Of a stretch of 64,000 nt of DNA, positions 5,576-64,000 are shown piece after piece (positions within the stretch are counted from its first letter, which is position 1; the number at the start of each line of letters is the position of its first letter). The position numbers and the translations under genes were made by a program. The DNA is from a virus (lineage: Duplodnaviria; Caudoviricetes): the IMG/VR virus record IMGVR_UViG_3300006169_000009, positions 1 to 64,000 of that record; one strand, written 5' to 3'. The notes under the pieces are model-generated. The model did no database searches. It worked only from the letters and a program-made list of their open reading frames with translations, and was not told the origin of the DNA.

Positions 5576-5976
5576 GAACCTCCGACTCGGTGTGGCAGAT
5601 GAAGGTACCCGTACTCGACCAAGTTCGCGATGATCGCCATGGCGAGTGCTCTGCTCACCTGGACGGTCTCCTGGATCTGCTCGGTGGCCTCCTGCTCGGT
5701 GTAGGACTTGTCCCGCACGTCAAGAAGGTGCCGTCCCATGATAGCGCCAGCCAGGTCGGCAGTCTGTGCCAATTGGGGGAGGATCGGCATGATCGCGTTG
5801 AGCCTGCGATGGTGTGCGCGGTGCTCTACTTCCACGCCCTCGTCGGACCCCGGAACCAGAGTTACCTTGGGCATGAACTTGTTGACGTCCGGGCACGGGA
5901 TCAGGTCCCAGGTCAGTTGGCGGCGGAGCAGGACGTTCTGGTCCTTGTGGTCTACCATCACTTGGCCTCGCTCCAC
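5572..5976 (-). CDS. hypothetical protein
   Basis: ORF tiles between its neighbours. Confidence 0.65.
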   Translation of the reverse strand: MERGQVMVDHKDQNVLLRRQLTWDLIPCPDVNKFMPKVTLVPGSDEGVEVEHRAHHRRLNAIMPILPQLAQTADLAGAIMGRHLLDVRDKSYTEQEATEQIQETVQVSRALAMAIIANLVEYGYLHLPHRVGGS

Positions 5977-59095: not shown

Positions 59096-59340
59096 CCCTC
59101 CTGGATGTACCCGCGTGCAGCACCGTCGATACGGGCCGCCGAGAGCGCGCAGGCGGTAGGGCCAGAGCCCCAGCCACGCTCCTGGGTGGTGACCTTGGAG
59201 CCAGCGCGCATGGCGTCGGAGAGGGTGTACTTGGTCAGCACGCCCATCTCGATCTCACCCAGTTCCGCCTTCAGGGCCTGGGTCGCCTCCGGCCAGATCT
59301 CCTCCGTGGTCTTGGGAGTCTGCTTCTCCGTGGTGCTCAT
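59092..59340 (-). CDS. hypothetical protein
   Basis: ATG at 59340 with GAGGA. Confidence 0.65.
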   Translation of the reverse strand: MSTTEKQTPKTTEEIWPEATQALKAELGEIEMGVLTKYTLSDAMRAGSKVTTQERGWGSGPTACALSAARIDGAARGYIQEG

Positions 59341-60385
59341 CTGCTTCCTCACTTTCAGGGTTCTGGAACGACAGGTCACAGTCTAGCGTCTCCAGCCAGT
59401 CTGCGATAGCCTCTCGCGTCCACTTGTGGGTGTCGTTGAGATGCACGACTAGGTTGACGACGTAGTTGGTTCTGGGCATGGAACAGAACGTCTTTCCCTT
59501 GTTCTTGCGTACCGGACACTTTGCCTTGGCGGTCTTCAGCGCAGGGATGGCCTTGACCAGTGCCCCGGTCATCGGGTGGTCCTCGTCGGTGTAAGAGGCT
59601 CCGCTATTGGCGGTGTACGGCGTCAACTTCGCCTGGTCTGGCGTGATGGTCTTCTTGGGCTTGTACTCGCCCTTGTGGACCACCAGCGGGAGCGCGTGGT
59701 CGAGGTTCGGGATCTGGTTGGATACCGTGGTGGGGGTCAGCAGACCCTCGATGAGAAGGTCGACAGCGGCCTCAGCCTGATGCTGGGCCAGACCGTGCTC
59801 CATCACGAGCCAACCGATCAGTTCCTGGGGATCGGTGGTGCCTACATGGAAGTGGAACTTCTCCGGGTCCTCATCCACCGGCTCCTCCATCTCGATGTTC
59901 GGGCTGCAGTTGTCGTAGGCAGTGAACGTGCCCATCTGTCGAAGAACGTGGACCTGTTCAAGAGTGTCCTGGACAGCCTCCCAAGGCTTGCCGTCAGTCC
60001 AGTCGCACACGAATACGATCTTCGATCCTGGTCGAAGACCGCGCAGTCCTCTCGGGTGATAGACGAACTTCGCGTCCAGATTCGTGCGAAGGTTGCGAAC
60101 CTCACACCACAACTTGAAGCAGTTGTAGTTCATAGCCACGACGTAGTAAGGCTCGGGGGTGCGGAACAACTTCAGGCCCAGCAGGTTCTCCCACGTGTCG
60201 TGCTTGTGGGTGTTGGGCTTCATGTCGATGAGGACCTTCAGGCTGGCGTGCTGCGCAGGAGTCATGACGAAATCAACCGATCCACCAGTCTGGTGATTAG
60301 AGACAACCCCGCCGTACTTGTAGTCCTTGTATCCGACGGGCTTCCATGGCGAGGAGATCTGGTACAAACCATAAGACTGGGACAC
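59255..60385 (-). CDS. hypothetical protein
   Basis: GTG at 60385 with GAGAGG; C-terminal C..C..HLNDTHKWTREAIADWL. Confidence 0.65.
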   Translation of the reverse strand: MSQSYGLYQISSPWKPVGYKDYKYGGVVSNHQTGGSVDFVMTPAQHASLKVLIDMKPNTHKHDTWENLLGLKLFRTPEPYYVVAMNYNCFKLWCEVRNLRTNLDAKFVYHPRGLRGLRPGSKIVFVCDWTDGKPWEAVQDTLEQVHVLRQMGTFTAYDNCSPNIEMEEPVDEDPEKFHFHVGTTDPQELIGWLVMEHGLAQHQAEAAVDLLIEGLLTPTTVSNQIPNLDHALPLVVHKGEYKPKKTITPDQAKLTPYTANSGASYTDEDHPMTGALVKAIPALKTAKAKCPVRKNKGKTFCSMPRTNYVVNLVVHLNDTHKWTREAIADWLETLDCDLSFQNPESEEADEHHGEADSQDHGGDLAGGDPGPEGGTG

Positions 60386-60414
60386 TGCTTCCTCTCTCGT
60401 GCGCGTGGTGGGGT

Positions 60415-60431
60415 ACTCAACAGTGGAGCCA
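60415..60431 (-). repeat. 3' arm of the 17-bp inverted repeat enclosing the RNA operon
   Basis: ACTCAACAGTGGAGCCA is the reverse complement of 63947-63963. Confidence 0.85.
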
Positions 60432-60432
60432 G

Positions 60433-60510
60433 TGGAGATGGCGGGACTCGAACCCGCGTCCGCCGTCAGTCCGCATGCGGTCTTCCGACGTCGAACTACC
60501 ATGCATCCCC
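60433..60510 (-). ncRNA. mini-tmRNA consisting of the tRNA-like domain only
   Basis: GGGGAUG/CAUCUCC-A acceptor with G3.U70, UUCGAC, helix 2 capped by CAUG, GGAC-GCGGG-UUCGAGU-CCCGC. Confidence 0.8.
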
Positions 60511-60694
60511 AGGTGTGGGATTAGGACCGTGGCTTCCGGCCCGACACCCACGACGGAGAAAAGGAGTGTCCGTCACACCCCCGCCCATATAGCAGGACGG
60601 ATGCCCCTGCGTTTCGTCACGCTGATGCAGGGTTCGCGGCCAGTGATTATCGCTCACAGGATTCAAGCGCCTGGGAGCCACCCAGGAGTCTGTG

Positions 60695-60877
60695 TCAGCG
60701 CCGACGGCCCTGACAGGTGTTGAGGTGACCCAGCAAGGCCGGGCCGCCGATCTTGATGAACGCCCCGCAGTGCCAGGGGCAGGCCCCGGTAGTGCGCTTG
60801 ATGCCCATCTTCTTCATGTACGCGGCCATCTCCTGGTCAGACTTGGAGCGCGTGCCACGACGGTCGTTTGCGGACAT
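60695..60877 (-). CDS. small basic Zn-finger protein
   Basis: CPWHC..HLNTC; SD AGGAAGG. Confidence 0.6.
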   Translation of the reverse strand: MSANDRRGTRSKSDQEMAAYMKKMGIKRTTGACPWHCGAFIKIGGPALLGHLNTCQGRRR

Positions 60878-60957
60878 TGGCAGTCCTTCCTATGAGTAGT
60901 TACCTACTCATGGAGACCACCAGCCTTTCCAGAGAACACTTGTCTCCTCTCGTGGGA

Positions 60958-61104
60958 CTACTTCTTGCGGCCCTTCTTGGCCTTCGCCTTCTTGGCGTCG
61001 GCGTTGCTGATGGCCGCAGCCTTGGACTTGCTCATGCCCTTGGCCTTCAACGCGTCGTACTCCGAAGGCTTCTTGATGCTCGGGCCGTGATCCTTACCTG
61101 GCAC
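60958..61104 (-). CDS. 48-aa Lys-rich protein
   Basis: GTG at 61104 with GAGGAGAAGG; GPSIK..YDALKAKGMSKSKAAAISNA. Confidence 0.7.
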   Translation of the reverse strand: MPGKDHGPSIKKPSEYDALKAKGMSKSKAAAISNADAKKAKAKKGRKK

Positions 61105-61138
61105 TGTCCTTCTCCTCTCAGACATGGCCAGTGTAGCG

Positions 61139-61211
61139 AGCCCCTGACAGGATTCGAACCCGCATTTCGCCTGAGTCGTATTCAGGTGCCTCTCCGTTAG
61201 ACTACAGGGGC
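61139..61211 (-). tRNA. tRNA-Arg(ACG)
   Basis: cloverleaf; loop AT-ACG-AC. Confidence 0.9.
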
Positions 61212-61212
61212 G

Positions 61213-61286
61213 TGGAGATGCTTCCCGGAGTCGAACCGGGGTGAACGGGTTTGCAGCCCGCCGCCTAGCCTCTCGGCCAAAGCATC
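61213..61286 (-). tRNA. tRNA-Cys(GCA), CCA encoded
   Basis: loop CT-GCA-AA. Confidence 0.93.
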
Positions 61287-61290
61287 TCGG

Positions 61291-61374
61291 TGCAGGGTGA
61301 AGGACTCGAACCTCCAAGGTCAGATGACACCTGGTTTACAGCCAGGGACGCTACCAGTTACGCTCTAACCCTGC
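61291..61374 (-). tRNA. tRNA-Tyr(GTA)
   Basis: loop CT-GTA-AA; long variable arm. Confidence 0.92.
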
Positions 61375-61376
61375 GG

Positions 61377-61451
61377 GGTGGCGGACGGCCCTCGAAGCCG
61401 CTAATCGACAGATTCACAGTCTGCCCGCTCGTCCACTTCGCGTTCCGCCAC
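61377..61451 (-). tRNA. tRNA-His(GTG)
   Basis: loop CT-GTG-AA; C73. Confidence 0.88.
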
Positions 61452-61453
61452 AG

Positions 61454-61524
61454 TGCTCCCAGAGGGATTCGAACCCCCAGTCACGGTGTGTAAGACCGAT
61501 GGTTTGCCGTTAACCGACAGGAGC
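61454..61524 (-). tRNA. tRNA-Val(TAC)
   Basis: loop CT-TAC-AC. Confidence 0.9.
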
Positions 61525-61595
61525 AAACGGGCTTGGGGTGTCGACTGGTCCCCGCTTCACGGATTCAAACCGATGGACGAGCCCCGCGCCCAACG

Positions 61596-61667
61596 CGGTG
61601 AGTACGGGGATCGAACCCGTGGCCTTCCGGCTGACAACCGGCTGCGCTGCCTCTGCGCCAACCCACC
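61596..61667 (-). tRNA. tRNA-Asp(GTC)
   Basis: loop TT-GTC-AG; G73. Confidence 0.9.
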
Positions 61668-61672
61668 TAGCG

Positions 61673-61746
61673 TGGAGAATGAGGGACTCGAACCCTCCAG
61701 GCCGCGATCTTGCAAGGATCGCCCGGGTAACCCGTGCCCATTCCCC
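61673..61746 (-). tRNA. tRNA-Ala(TGC), atypical D arm
   Basis: G3.U70; loop CT-TGC-AA. Confidence 0.8.
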
Positions 61747-61747
61747 T

Positions 61748-61823
61748 TGGCTGATCTGGTAGGACTCGAACCTACAACCCCCTGATTAACAGTCAGGTGC
61801 GCTGCCAATTGCGCCACAGACCA
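61748..61823 (-). tRNA. tRNA-Asn(GTT), CCA encoded
   Basis: loop CT-GTT-AA. Confidence 0.93.
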
Positions 61824-61828
61824 ATGAG

Positions 61829-61901
61829 TAGCGGTGACGGGATTCGAACCCGTAGTACCCAGATTATGAGTCTGGCGTGTTGCCGATTACACCACACCGC
61901 G
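61829..61901 (-). tRNA. tRNA-Met(CAT)
   Basis: loop CT-CAT-AA; C1:U72 mismatch. Confidence 0.9.
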
Positions 61902-61906
61902 ATGCG

Positions 61907-61979
61907 TACGCCCAGTAGGACTCGAACCTACAACCCTCTGATTAAGAGTCAGATGCTCTACCAATTGAGCCATAGGCGC
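61907..61979 (-). tRNA. tRNA-Lys(CTT)
   Basis: loop CT-CTT-AA. Confidence 0.93.
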
Positions 61980-62077
61980 ATGTTGCTGACTTGCCCAACA
62001 AGGTTGTGCCACGTTGTTGGCGCTTCCGCAGGGCTAGGCACGTTAGAGCCCCCGCACCGACTGTCAGCGAGCCGTCG

Positions 62078-62151
62078 TGTCCTCGGAGGGACTTGAACCC
62101 CCAACCTGCAGGCTCTCGACCTGCCGCCTCTGCCGATTGGGCTACGAGGAC
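62078..62151 (-). tRNA. tRNA-Leu(GAG), short variable arm
   Basis: loop TC-GAG-AG. Confidence 0.85.
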
Positions 62152-62228
62152 AAGCCCGGACGTCTCCGGGTCGTTCTCATTACGTCGGGTGGCTCCACAC
62201 CGGCTCGTCAGCCGGGATCACCCGAGGG

Positions 62229-62302
62229 TATCCGTGGAGGGACTCGAACCCCCAACATCTTGATCCTGAATCAAGCGCCTCTGCCAGTTGGACTACACGG
62301 AC
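62229..62302 (-). tRNA. tRNA-Leu(CAG), short variable arm
   Basis: loop TT-CAG-GA. Confidence 0.88.
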
Positions 62303-62389
62303 ATGCGTGGGGATACCATTCGCCCCACCACCAGGCTCTACAATCCCATTCCACCTCGGCTCCCGTAGGCTTCGGCCCTGGCCCTTACG

Positions 62390-62473
62390 CGGAGAGAGCA
62401 GGATTCGAACCTGCGGGACGCGAGGCCCACTGAGTTAGCAACTCAGCGCAATAAACCGCTCTGCCACCTCTCC
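62390..62473 (-). tRNA. tRNA-Ser(GCT)
   Basis: loop TT-GCT-AA; long variable arm. Confidence 0.92.
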
Positions 62474-62549
62474 TGGACCCCCCAGCAGGATTCGAACCCG
62501 CAACGCCCGGCTTAGAACACCGTCAGTCTATCCGTTGACCTATAGGGGG
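62474..62549 (-). tRNA. tRNA-Arg(TCT), CCA encoded
   Basis: loop GT-TCT-AA. Confidence 0.88.
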
Positions 62550-62553
62550 ATAG

Positions 62554-62628
62554 TGCGCTGCTCAGGGCTCGAACCTGAAACATCCGGGGTTTGAATCCGG
62601 CACCTCTGCCAAATTGGGTCAGCAGCGC
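62554..62628 (-). tRNA. tRNA-Leu(CAA), short variable arm
   Basis: loop TT-CAA-AC. Confidence 0.87.
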
Positions 62629-62636
62629 GTGTGCGA

Positions 62637-62743
62637 GTCTGCAAGCGCACTCGGCGCGTTATCGGTGCTTCACGTACCGTCGTCAGGCCAAAGGCTTCTT
62701 TCCCTCTTCCGTCGAAGAGGATCGAGAACGGTAACTTGCAGAC
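62637..62743 (-). ncRNA. putative structured spacer RNA (multibranch)
   Basis: 9-bp perfect closing helix GTCTGCAAG/CTTGCAGAC; internal CCTCTTC-GACG-GAAGAGG. Confidence 0.5.
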
Positions 62744-62747
62744 CCAG

Positions 62748-62831
62748 AGGAGGGTAGAGGGTTCGAACCCCTGCCCCGAAGGACACTCCAGTTTTCTAGA
62801 CTGGTCGCCAGCCACTCCAGCAGTACCCTCC
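62748..62831 (-). tRNA. tRNA-Ser(AGA)
   Basis: stem CCAGT/ACTGG; loop CT-AGA-AA; long variable arm with UUCG. Confidence 0.85.
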
Positions 62832-62835
62832 GAAG

Positions 62836-62908
62836 TACCCCCAACGGGATTCGAACCCGTGTTAGCGGCTTGAAAGGCCGCCGTCCTAGTCCACTAGACG
62901 ATAAGGGT
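62836..62908 (-). tRNA. tRNA-Glu(TTC)
   Basis: loop CT-TTC-AA. Confidence 0.92.
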
Positions 62909-62909
62909 A

Positions 62910-62985
62910 TGGCAGTCCGTGCGGGAGTCGAACCCGCGTCACCTGGCTGAGAACCAGACATCCTGGGCCACTAGACGAACGGACC
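62910..62985 (-). tRNA. tRNA-Glu(CTC), CCA encoded
   Basis: loop TT-CTC-AG. Confidence 0.92.
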
Positions 62986-63050
62986 AAGTGCTGTGGCTTG
63001 TCGGACCAGAGCATGAGTCAGCAGGCCCGAGTGGACCTCCAACACCGGAG

Positions 63051-63124
63051 TTGGGGTGGCAGGGCTTGAACCTGCGCATCCGTGCTTATCAGGCACGAGC
63101 CTTGACCGACTTGGCTACACCCCA
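63051..63124 (-). tRNA. tRNA-Ile(GAT)
   Basis: loop CT-GAT-AA. Confidence 0.92.
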
Positions 63125-63129
63125 TCGCG

Positions 63130-63201
63130 CTCCTCCCCAAGGACTCGAACCTCGACCGGATGAATCAGAGTCACCCGTGCTGCCAATTACACCAAGGAGG
63201 A
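63130..63201 (-). tRNA. tRNA-Gln(CTG)
   Basis: loop CT-CTG-AT; U1-A72, G73. Confidence 0.92.
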
Positions 63202-63307
63202 AAGACGCGGACCCATGGCACTACATGGGCTACCCGCTCTGACCACCCCAGGTCTGCACCGTCCTCTGTGCAGTGTTCAGGCGAGGACACCTTGGGGGAG
63301 TGCGCAG

Positions 63308-63381
63308 AGCCTCGTGGAGGATTCGAACCCCCAGCGCGCTGATTACTAAACAGCCGTTCTGCCAGTTGGAACTAACGAGGC
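63308..63381 (-). tRNA. tRNA-Thr(AGT)
   Basis: loop TT-AGT-AA; C2-G71. Confidence 0.87.
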
Positions 63382-63455
63382 ATGCGTACCGTGTTCGCGA
63401 AGGGCGGTACAACCCCTCCTCTAGAACGCCGCTTGTGCGACGGTGCGATCATACG

Positions 63456-63527
63456 AGCGCCGCAGGGGACTCGAACCCCCACCCTATGCTTGGAAGGCAT
63501 CGATGCTGCCATTAACACCAACGGCGC
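63456..63527 (-). tRNA. tRNA-Gly(TCC)
   Basis: loop CT-TCC-AA; U73. Confidence 0.92.
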
Positions 63528-63713
63528 GTGTGTCGGGGACGCAGCGCGGAAACGAGGGGCGTGATCAGTCTCTCGCATGGACCTTGCTTCGCCAGGAGGC
63601 AGCGTTGACGCCCCCGACTTTTATCACCATGACCCAACCCTTCGGTTGAGTAGTTGAAGCGCGGAGTGGAAGACATCCGCCGTGGGGGCGTAGTTTGTGG
63701 CCCCGCGCTTCTG

Positions 63714-63786
63714 TGCCGCCCCGAGGACTCGAACCTCGGCCTCCCGGTTTTCAGCCGGGCGCTCTACCTGTTGTCGCTAGAGCGGC
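63714..63786 (-). tRNA. tRNA-Phe(GAA)
   Basis: loop CT-GAA-AA. Confidence 0.9.
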
Positions 63787-63845
63787 ATGAGCGGGTCTAG
63801 GGTTGTCGACACTTAGCCCCATCGAGGGGGACTCTAGGCCCGCAG

Positions 63846-63919
63846 TCTGAGTGGGAGGATTTGAACCCCCGACCTCCTGAACCCAAATCAGGCGGCATAC
63901 CTGGCTTGCCTACACTCAG
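63846..63919 (-). tRNA. tRNA-Pro(TGG)
   Basis: loop TT-TGG-GT. Confidence 0.92.
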
Positions 63920-63946
63920 ATCGACAGGGCTTGGCAGGCCCTGTCA

Positions 63947-63969
63947 TGGCTCCACTGTTGAGTTCTCAA
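63947..63969 (-). promoter_or_regulatory. rrn-leader-like (boxA/processing stalk) motif; 5' arm of the 17-bp inverted repeat
   Basis: minus strand TTGAGAACTCAACAGTGGAGCCA. Confidence 0.7.
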
Positions 63970-64000
63970 TGTGCAAGTGGTTCGGGCTTCCACCTCCCGG

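Follow-up and report, generated by a model that had tools for sequence, protein, structure and literature searches.

In the 64,000-nucleotide (nt) stretch of DNA analyzed here (the window; positions 1 to 64,000 of IMG/VR virus record IMGVR_UViG_3300006169_000009, an uncultivated actinobacterial phage with a 106-kb genome), a block of transfer RNA (tRNA) genes is bounded by two complementary 17-nt arms, the first of which overlaps an exact copy of the leader element that precedes 16S ribosomal RNA (rRNA) in actinobacterial rRNA operons (rrn). The identity with rrn leaders, the complementarity of the arms, their position at the array boundaries and the compensatory conservation of the pairing in six phage lineages were all directly established, and they give good support to a conserved long-range RNA helix that appears to be modelled on the rRNA leader-trailer helix. 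We consider it probable, on the sequence evidence presented below, that the design of the tRNA block imitates the host rRNA transcription unit and that the block would be transcribed and excised via the host rRNA machinery. All genes of the region are on the minus strand, and the elements on which the finding rests are as follows (window coordinates).

63953..63969, minus strand: rrn-leader motif TTGAGAACTCAACAGTG, identical to actinobacterial 16S leaders and overlapping the 5' arm

63947..63963, minus strand: 5' arm of the long-range helix, reading ACTCAACAGTGGAGCCA on the RNA

60415..60431, minus strand: 3' arm of the long-range helix, reading TGGCTCCACTGTTGAGT on the RNA

The initial annotation, made from the window sequence alone, had claimed that 63947-63963 is the exact reverse complement of 60415-60431, and this was confirmed: the two segments form a 17-nt inverted repeat with 100% complementarity and 3515 nt in between. 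As the 24 tRNA genes in the window are all on the minus strand, the 5' arm on the RNA runs from 63963 to 63947 (ACUCAACAGUGGAGCCA in the transcript) and the 3' arm from 60431 to 60415 (UGGCUCCACUGUUGAGU). Each arm occurs once in the complete 106,055-base virus record, and by our own arithmetic approx. 0.12 exact 17-nt inverted pairs would be expected by chance per 64 kb. The best ungapped complement score was 17 for the leader as compared to 9.6 ± 1.2 (maximum 13) for 60 random 50-mers from the same region, and the predicted energy of the 17-bp helix is approx. -39 kcal/mol. The arms sit at the two boundaries of the tRNA array, so that complements are found at both edges of a structured RNA block with the boxC-like sequence within the 5' strand; the enclosed approx. 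3.5 kb hold 24 tRNAs, two small open reading frames (ORFs) and a tRNA-like miniature transfer-messenger RNA (mini-tmRNA). The further claim that the 3' arm starts just past the mini-tmRNA discriminator also held, as the arm begins one base after the discriminator-plus-C of this 81-nt element.

The rrn-leader motif is present as a single copy in the phage genome. A search for the pattern TTGAGAACTCAA[CT]AGTG in one genome per prokaryote species returned at least 120 matches, and all but one of the matches listed were from Actinomycetota, many of them near contig ends. Among 121 listed sites, 64 had a 16S 5' end 104-303 nt downstream, 55 ran off the contig and two were testable but lacked 16S; among the matches listed, 64 of the 66 testable actinobacterial sites therefore precede 16S rRNA. 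An Rfam check of seven loci placed the motif 88-244 nt upstream of 16S rRNA in six of them. The initial annotation had likened the 5' arm to the conserved actinobacterial rrn leader, and the exact 17-nt match bears this out. One of the two listed sites without 16S is a mobile-element-like leader in Kitasatospora. At locus L017 of Kitasatospora sp. (5845-5861, minus strand) a full rrn-like leader (GGCAGCGTTCGTTCC plus the motif) is chromosomal and stands downstream of TTGACC-18-TATGTT; no rRNA was detected within the 8 kb of this locus, and the leader precedes small ORFs, one of which is membrane-protein-like. This copy is likely the early leader of a prophage or integrative element.

The host consensus around the motif (e.g., GTTCT-TTGAGAACTCAACAGTG-TGCC) identifies the first six bases of the motif as the 3' half of a boxA-like element and the remainder as boxC-like. 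For comparison, the boxA of E. coli is GYTCTTTAANA (PMC5725501). When the phage sequence GCACATTGAGA is compared with this form and with the host form GTTCTTTGAGA, it agrees with the Rhodococcus/Nocardia form in 8 of 11 positions, C4 and T6 being retained; in relatives these positions vary freely. The boxC region of the M. tuberculosis rrn operon is described, in a passage of PMC2724277 that cites Arnvig 2004 and Beuth 2005, as a specific NusA site.

In all five complete host operons analyzed, the leader pairs with a segment of the first internal transcribed spacer (ITS1), CACACUGUUG[G/A]GUCCUGAG..., over approx. 35 bp (approx. -42 kcal/mol), and this pairing is the pre-16S leader-trailer helix. 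The ITS1 partner has the form CACACTGTTG[GA]GTCCTGAG in these operons, so the trailer CT[AG]TTG[AG]GT, which the initial annotation had named, was recovered in 5/5 of them. A second, related host copy in ITS1 (TTGAGAACTGCACAGTGGACGCGAGC) pairs with ITS2 around 23S. The phage element shares features with both host helices. It is identical to the 16S leader at 17/17 positions and then continues with GGA like the 23S leader (CAGUGGA), it differs from the 23S-leader form by 2 mismatches in 20, and its central CUCAA is that of the 16S leader and not of the pre-23S leader. Likewise, the phage 3' arm joins UCCACUGU, which is 23S-trailer-like and shared with the pre-23S helix, to CUGUUGAGU, which is 16S-trailer-like (CUGUUG[G/A]GU in the hosts). 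Judged from these alignments, the phage element is best seen as an rrn-type leader and trailer of hybrid character, with a core of the 16S-leader type. The order of hairpin, motif and paired segment is the same in the phage as in Actinomycetota 16S leaders, and in both cases the pairing closes a multi-kilobase structured RNA. The phage stalk differs from that of the hosts in that it is located on a phage genome and encloses tRNAs, a mini-tmRNA and two ORFs instead of 16S rRNA, in that its helix has 17 bp as compared to approx. 35 bp and does not cover the boxA half, and in that the 5' half of boxA is not host-like and a covarying, phage-specific sequence follows CAGUG.

Relatives were sought by pattern scans of IMG/VR and of metagenome contigs; near-identical relatives were absent from the phage collection searched. 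Among 98 metagenome contigs carrying TTGAGAACTCAACAGYGG, 23 had a tRNA array headed by the motif. Five other uncultivated phage lineages share the layout, with spans of 1.7-9.1 kb, and the complement of the leader was found at the 3' end of the array in the loci in which that end is present, L410 apart. These 3' partners were found by duplex folding, as a strict 12-mer search missed bulged ones. The five lineages are as follows.

Lineage G002/G003: 38 tRNAs; span 9.1 kb; 3' arm 3 nt past the last tRNA

Lineage G001: 37 tRNAs, a full tmRNA and an HNH ORF; span 6.7 kb; 3' arm after the HNH ORF

Lineage L321: 15-bp arm; span 5.5 kb; 3' arm 111 nt past the last tRNA

Lineage L342: pairing extends over GAGAAC/GUUCUC; span 4.7 kb; 3' arm directly past the last tRNA

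Lineage L403: 12 bp with one bulge; span 1.7 kb; 3' arm approx. 45 nt past the last tRNA

Across the lineages a 15-mer of the leader is invariant while its flanks are variable. The six variable bases after (Y)GG are lineage-specific (AGCCAU, AACACG, AUGAGU, GAAACA, UGAGCA and GAAAAC), and cognate arms of the six lineages (including the phage studied here) nevertheless pair at 33 of these 36 positions. When arms were swapped between lineages, the mean over all 720 assignments was 17.7 of 36, and 33 was reached by the true assignment only; this test is ungapped and uses six positions per lineage, and a more lenient score that allowed bulges did not discriminate. The check for compensatory changes in related phage arrays, which the initial annotation had proposed, was thus positive. 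Pairing always starts at (A)CUCA, leaving UUGAGA unpaired. Mismatches are tolerated in the 3' sequence that pairs with the invariant core (CUGUUGAGU, CUGCUGAGU, CUGAUGAG and others), which indicates a constraint on the 5' side beyond pairing; the simplest source of such a constraint would be a host factor that recognizes this core.

Further candidate relatives gave the following picture. A search with the protein encoded downstream of the array (376 amino acids (aa); see below) yielded only one BE-like contig, which lacks the motif, and the Streptomyces BE-cluster phage Blueeyedbeauty has a copy with one mismatch in an intergenic gap of its terminal repeat, away from its tRNAs. Actinomycetia phage DSL-LC01, the nearest named phage by one protein, does not carry the motif, and Streptomyces phage Alone3, in which the tRNAs are interspersed with genes, was uninformative. 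A 109-kb virus record (G006) carries the motif without tRNAs and has only a local complement approx. 160 nt downstream; at this locus (L312 1050-1245) CAACAGCAGAGAC and GUCUCUGCUGU form a short-range stalk around an RNA of approx. 150 nt, with no tRNAs within 15 kb.

The block enclosed by the stalk and its immediate surroundings contain the following features.

63923..63945, minus strand: local hairpin of 8 bp (loop CUGCCAA), separating the 5' arm from tRNA-Pro (leader fold)

61138..63919, minus strand: array of 24 tRNA genes, Pro(tgg) to Arg(acg) (ARAGORN; Rfam)

60958..61104, minus strand: small basic ORF of 48 aa, DUF7218, between the last tRNA and the mini-tmRNA (PF23855, E = 6.7e-15)

60695..60877, minus strand: ORF of 60 aa inside the enclosed region (ORF call)

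60430..60510, minus strand: mini-tmRNA, tRNA-like domain only (Rfam RF00023, 54.5 bits; gathering score 47)

59255..60400, minus strand: downstream gene of 376 aa, with ribosome-binding site (RBS) GAGAGAGGAAG and a GTG start at 60385, approx. 30 nt after the 3' arm

The mini-tmRNA (81 nt) is the final structured RNA ahead of the 3' arm. Its Rfam alignment covers the ends of the model with the interior deleted; it has an acceptor stem with G3.U70 and a tmRNA T arm, and it lacks the mRNA-like domain and the pseudoknots. Lineage G001 has a full-length tmRNA at the corresponding position (L248 6641-7015, 71 bits), followed, between the tmRNA and the 3' arm and within the enclosed block, by an HNH endonuclease ORF of 196 aa (L248 7050-7640, plus strand) that looks like a homing-type insertion. 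The 60-aa ORF had no family match in a Pfam search. As two protein ORFs lie inside the 3.5 kb, the enclosed block is not a pure RNA cassette, unlike the structured-RNA cassette of the initial annotation. No terminator was found between the 3' arm and the 376-aa gene, which has a good RBS, and transcription therefore probably continues into the mRNA. The 376-aa protein had no Pfam match and shows weak C-terminal similarity to proteins of Streptomyces BE-cluster phages. With regard to the hairpin that follows the 5' arm, an analogous hairpin with loop GUGCCAA is present in lineage G002 (L246 about 1165-1190). In host 16S leaders UGCCAA stands directly 3' of the motif, so that the phages may present a hexamer of the host leader within a loop.

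The window extends only 31 bases past the leader motif, so features that precede the stalk could not be seen in the initial annotation; they were read from the rest of the virus record (genome coordinates).

64064-64139, minus strand: tRNA-Trp(cca), beyond the window (ARAGORN; under the Rfam tRNA cut-off)

64052-64023, minus strand: promoter-like TTGACA-18-TAAGGT, 83 nt upstream of the motif (own regular expression)

64016-63977, minus strand: boxB-like leader hairpin (leader fold), of which the window holds the 3' half (63977..64000)

With tRNA-Trp placed upstream of the 5' arm, part of the operon is left outside the stalk. The whole tRNA operon that the initial annotation took to be closed by the stalk consequently has both a tRNA and a promoter-like site outside it, and tRNA-Pro, which is the first tRNA within the window, is preceded in the genome by tRNA-Trp. 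In the leader fold the motif is largely unpaired, with the boxB-like hairpin before it and the 8-bp hairpin after it. The TTGACA and TAAGGT hexamers recur in G004. A perfect 9-nt inverted repeat (AGAAGACCU ... AGGUCUUCU; genome 64018-64062, minus strand) flanks the promoter-like -35 on both sides and shares bases with the -10; it could serve as an operator, or it could form a hairpin when RNA reads through from tRNA-Trp. Across lineages tRNA-Trp(cca) is a conserved neighbour upstream of the motif and outside the stalk (also at L246 997-1070); it was found 23-112 nt upstream of the motif in 18 of 25 metagenome loci examined, with tRNA-Asn in this place in two, and the first tRNA downstream of the motif in metagenome loci is Ala or Pro. 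Many bacteria have a tRNA ahead of the spacer boxA, which is comparable to the placement of tRNA-Trp ahead of the phage motif.

The course of events that we propose is as follows. Transcription would start at the promoter-like TTGACA-18-TAAGGT or arrive by read-through from tRNA-Trp, and the nascent RNA would first expose the hairpin and next UUGAGAACUCAACAG, the invariant rrn leader element, which in the hosts comprises the boxA 3' half and boxC. This element probably recruits a host rrn-type elongation/antitermination complex, which would shield the 3.5 kb of untranslated RNA from Rho and hold the leader on the polymerase. The 3' arm, on emerging behind the mini-tmRNA, would pair with boxC plus its extension to form the 17-bp leader-trailer helix, the tethered leader being handed to the 3' arm once this is transcribed, as in the model for 16S (PMC8632103). 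For that model it was proposed that the antitermination complex brings boxC to its complement downstream of 16S and so forms the RNase III site (PMC8632103); in E. coli the leader-trailer helix is essential (PMC10250234). Host RNase III probably cuts the phage helix, which would release the pre-tRNA block on one side from the leader and on the other from the mRNA that follows, and the tRNAs would be finished by RNase P, by RNase Z or exonucleases, and by the CCA-adding enzyme. Factor binding, antitermination and RNase III cleavage are here inferred. No gene for RNase III, NusB, NusG or S10 was found in the phage genome, and any such function would thus have to come from the host.

A number of observations weigh against this reading. 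The phage helix, at 17 bp, is below both the approx. 35 bp of host stalks and two helical turns. In the array phages the sequence just before TTGAGA departs from the host form (GCACA here; GCATA, GAGGA and GTAAC in relatives), which makes NusB/NusE binding to a true boxA uncertain, and the likeness of the motif to the 16S leader is matched by a likeness to the 23S leader. One tRNA, tRNA-Trp, lies outside the stalk; the promoter-like TTGACA-18-TAAGGT is a match by eye and regular expression that a consensus promoter scan did not report, and in most relatives just 23-60 nt separate tRNA-Trp from the motif, too little to fit a promoter in between. A convincing 3' partner was not obtained for lineage L410, and truncation affects many of the loci, most of the 23 metagenome array loci ending before the 3' end of the array. 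Finally, conserved complementarity at the DNA level, taken alone, fits an RNA helix and a protein-bound inverted repeat equally.

We therefore weighed the proposed mimicry of the rRNA transcription unit against other explanations. The helix may be real without being a processing site, if the 3' arm sequesters the leader and so ends antitermination, or if it clamps the ends of the block against exonucleases; we regard this as unlikely, though less so than the remaining alternatives. With antitermination ended, the downstream protein genes would, on this rather unlikely account, return to normal termination and translation coupling. The constant start of the pairing at (A)CUCA with UUGAGA left free would be consistent with such a role, as would the location of the 3' arm exactly where RNA genes give way to an mRNA that has an RBS of its own, the strong hairpin directly after the 3' arm of G001, and a helix that at 17 bp is short for RNase III. 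The homologous host helices, however, are textbook RNase III substrates (PMC8632103, PMC10250234), and the sequence is compatible with both models and does not separate this one from cleavage; the two could also operate together.

It appears improbable that the arms act as DNA, either as the terminal inverted repeats of a tRNA cassette that can move or invert, or as two sites for one DNA-binding protein. An exact inverted repeat around a discrete gene block and the homing-type HNH ORF within the G001 block could be read in this way, and constraint at the DNA level would likewise give matched changes in both arms. Yet no transposase, invertase or integrase lies in or beside the block, where the ORFs are DUF7218, the 60-aa ORF, a nucleotidase and unassigned proteins. 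Moreover, the 5' arm is identical to a host RNA signal, reads in the direction of transcription and follows a promoter-like site, the length and sequence of the arms are free to differ between lineages where a site for a protein would stay constant, and bulges and a U.G pair occur among L342, G001 and L403. Least credible of all is a relic, i.e., a captured piece of a host rrn leader with a chance or decaying complement and no present function. Phages often acquire host tRNA and rRNA-adjacent DNA, and the core of both arms is host-like, but the pairing is kept in six lineages despite a fully diverged paired extension, the arm positions follow the array boundaries over spans of 1.7-9.1 kb, and the motif is invariant amid variable flanks.

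The same motif was also observed in the right-end early leaders of cultured Likavirus/Camvirus phages, such as Caliburn (L004 700-725) and Alsaber (L005 640-660), and many uncultivated actinophages (e.g., IMG/VR loci L250-L262) carry it in early leaders too. These copies share up to 24 identical bases and stand approx. 90 nt downstream of a TTGACA...TAGAGT promoter, and their boxA half is often more host-like (GTTCC/GCTCC-TTGAGAAC). While the motif is the same as in the tRNA-array phage, these leaders precede protein genes and not tRNAs, and no long-range partner was found at the loci examined. We found no published description of the early-leader motif of Likavirus/Camvirus.

Leader RNAs related to boxA that modify the elongating polymerase are known from lambda nut/N and HK022 put, and also from mRNA leaders such as that of suhB (PMC5725501). 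Lambda differs in needing its own N protein and a boxB hairpin and in having no leader-trailer closure; no phage factor was found here, and the phage element reproduces the rrn leader of the host in full and is accompanied by the trailer that matches it.

Host RNases cut phage polycistronic transcripts such as the T7 early mRNAs, and the maturation of phage tRNAs likewise relies on enzymes of the host. The RNase III sites of T7 differ from the stalk described here in being local hairpins between genes, and we know of no rrn-like leader or long-range closing helix for the T4 tRNA cluster. Our full-text literature search, in a collection with few subscription journals, returned the rrn biology, and no paper was found in it that describes an rrn-type leader together with a closing helix on a tRNA array of a phage. 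The case is one of known rRNA-operon signals put to use on a block of phage tRNAs.

Arrays of tRNA genes are common in phages; to our knowledge, the escape from Rho and the processing of kilobases of untranslated phage RNA have largely not been addressed. A bolder possibility, which we think distinctly doubtful, is that the leader is a takeover device: during infection many copies of a perfect rrn leader would compete with the host rrn operons for NusA, NusB/NusE and RNase III and throttle host ribosome synthesis, while the tRNA block would gain fast, Rho-proof transcription of rRNA grade and chaperoned closure over up to 9 kb. If this were true, the invariant 15-mer, which is also found in the early leaders of many actinophages, would give phages a general handle on the machinery that transcribes host rRNA. 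As the same 15-mer heads early operons of many cultured Streptomyces phages, its role can be tested at the bench there. The arrays also offer a natural, non-essential and easily mutated system, with spans of 1.7-9.1 kb, for the "delivery" model in which a 5' leader is handed to its 3' complement, and a portable part for the expression of long non-coding RNA arrays in Streptomyces and related bacteria. Overall, a family of actinophages appears to have copied both signatures of the rRNA operon, i.e., the antitermination-type leader and the leader-trailer helix, onto a tRNA block, which predicts that host NusA/NusB/NusE and RNase III would be host factors for these phages.

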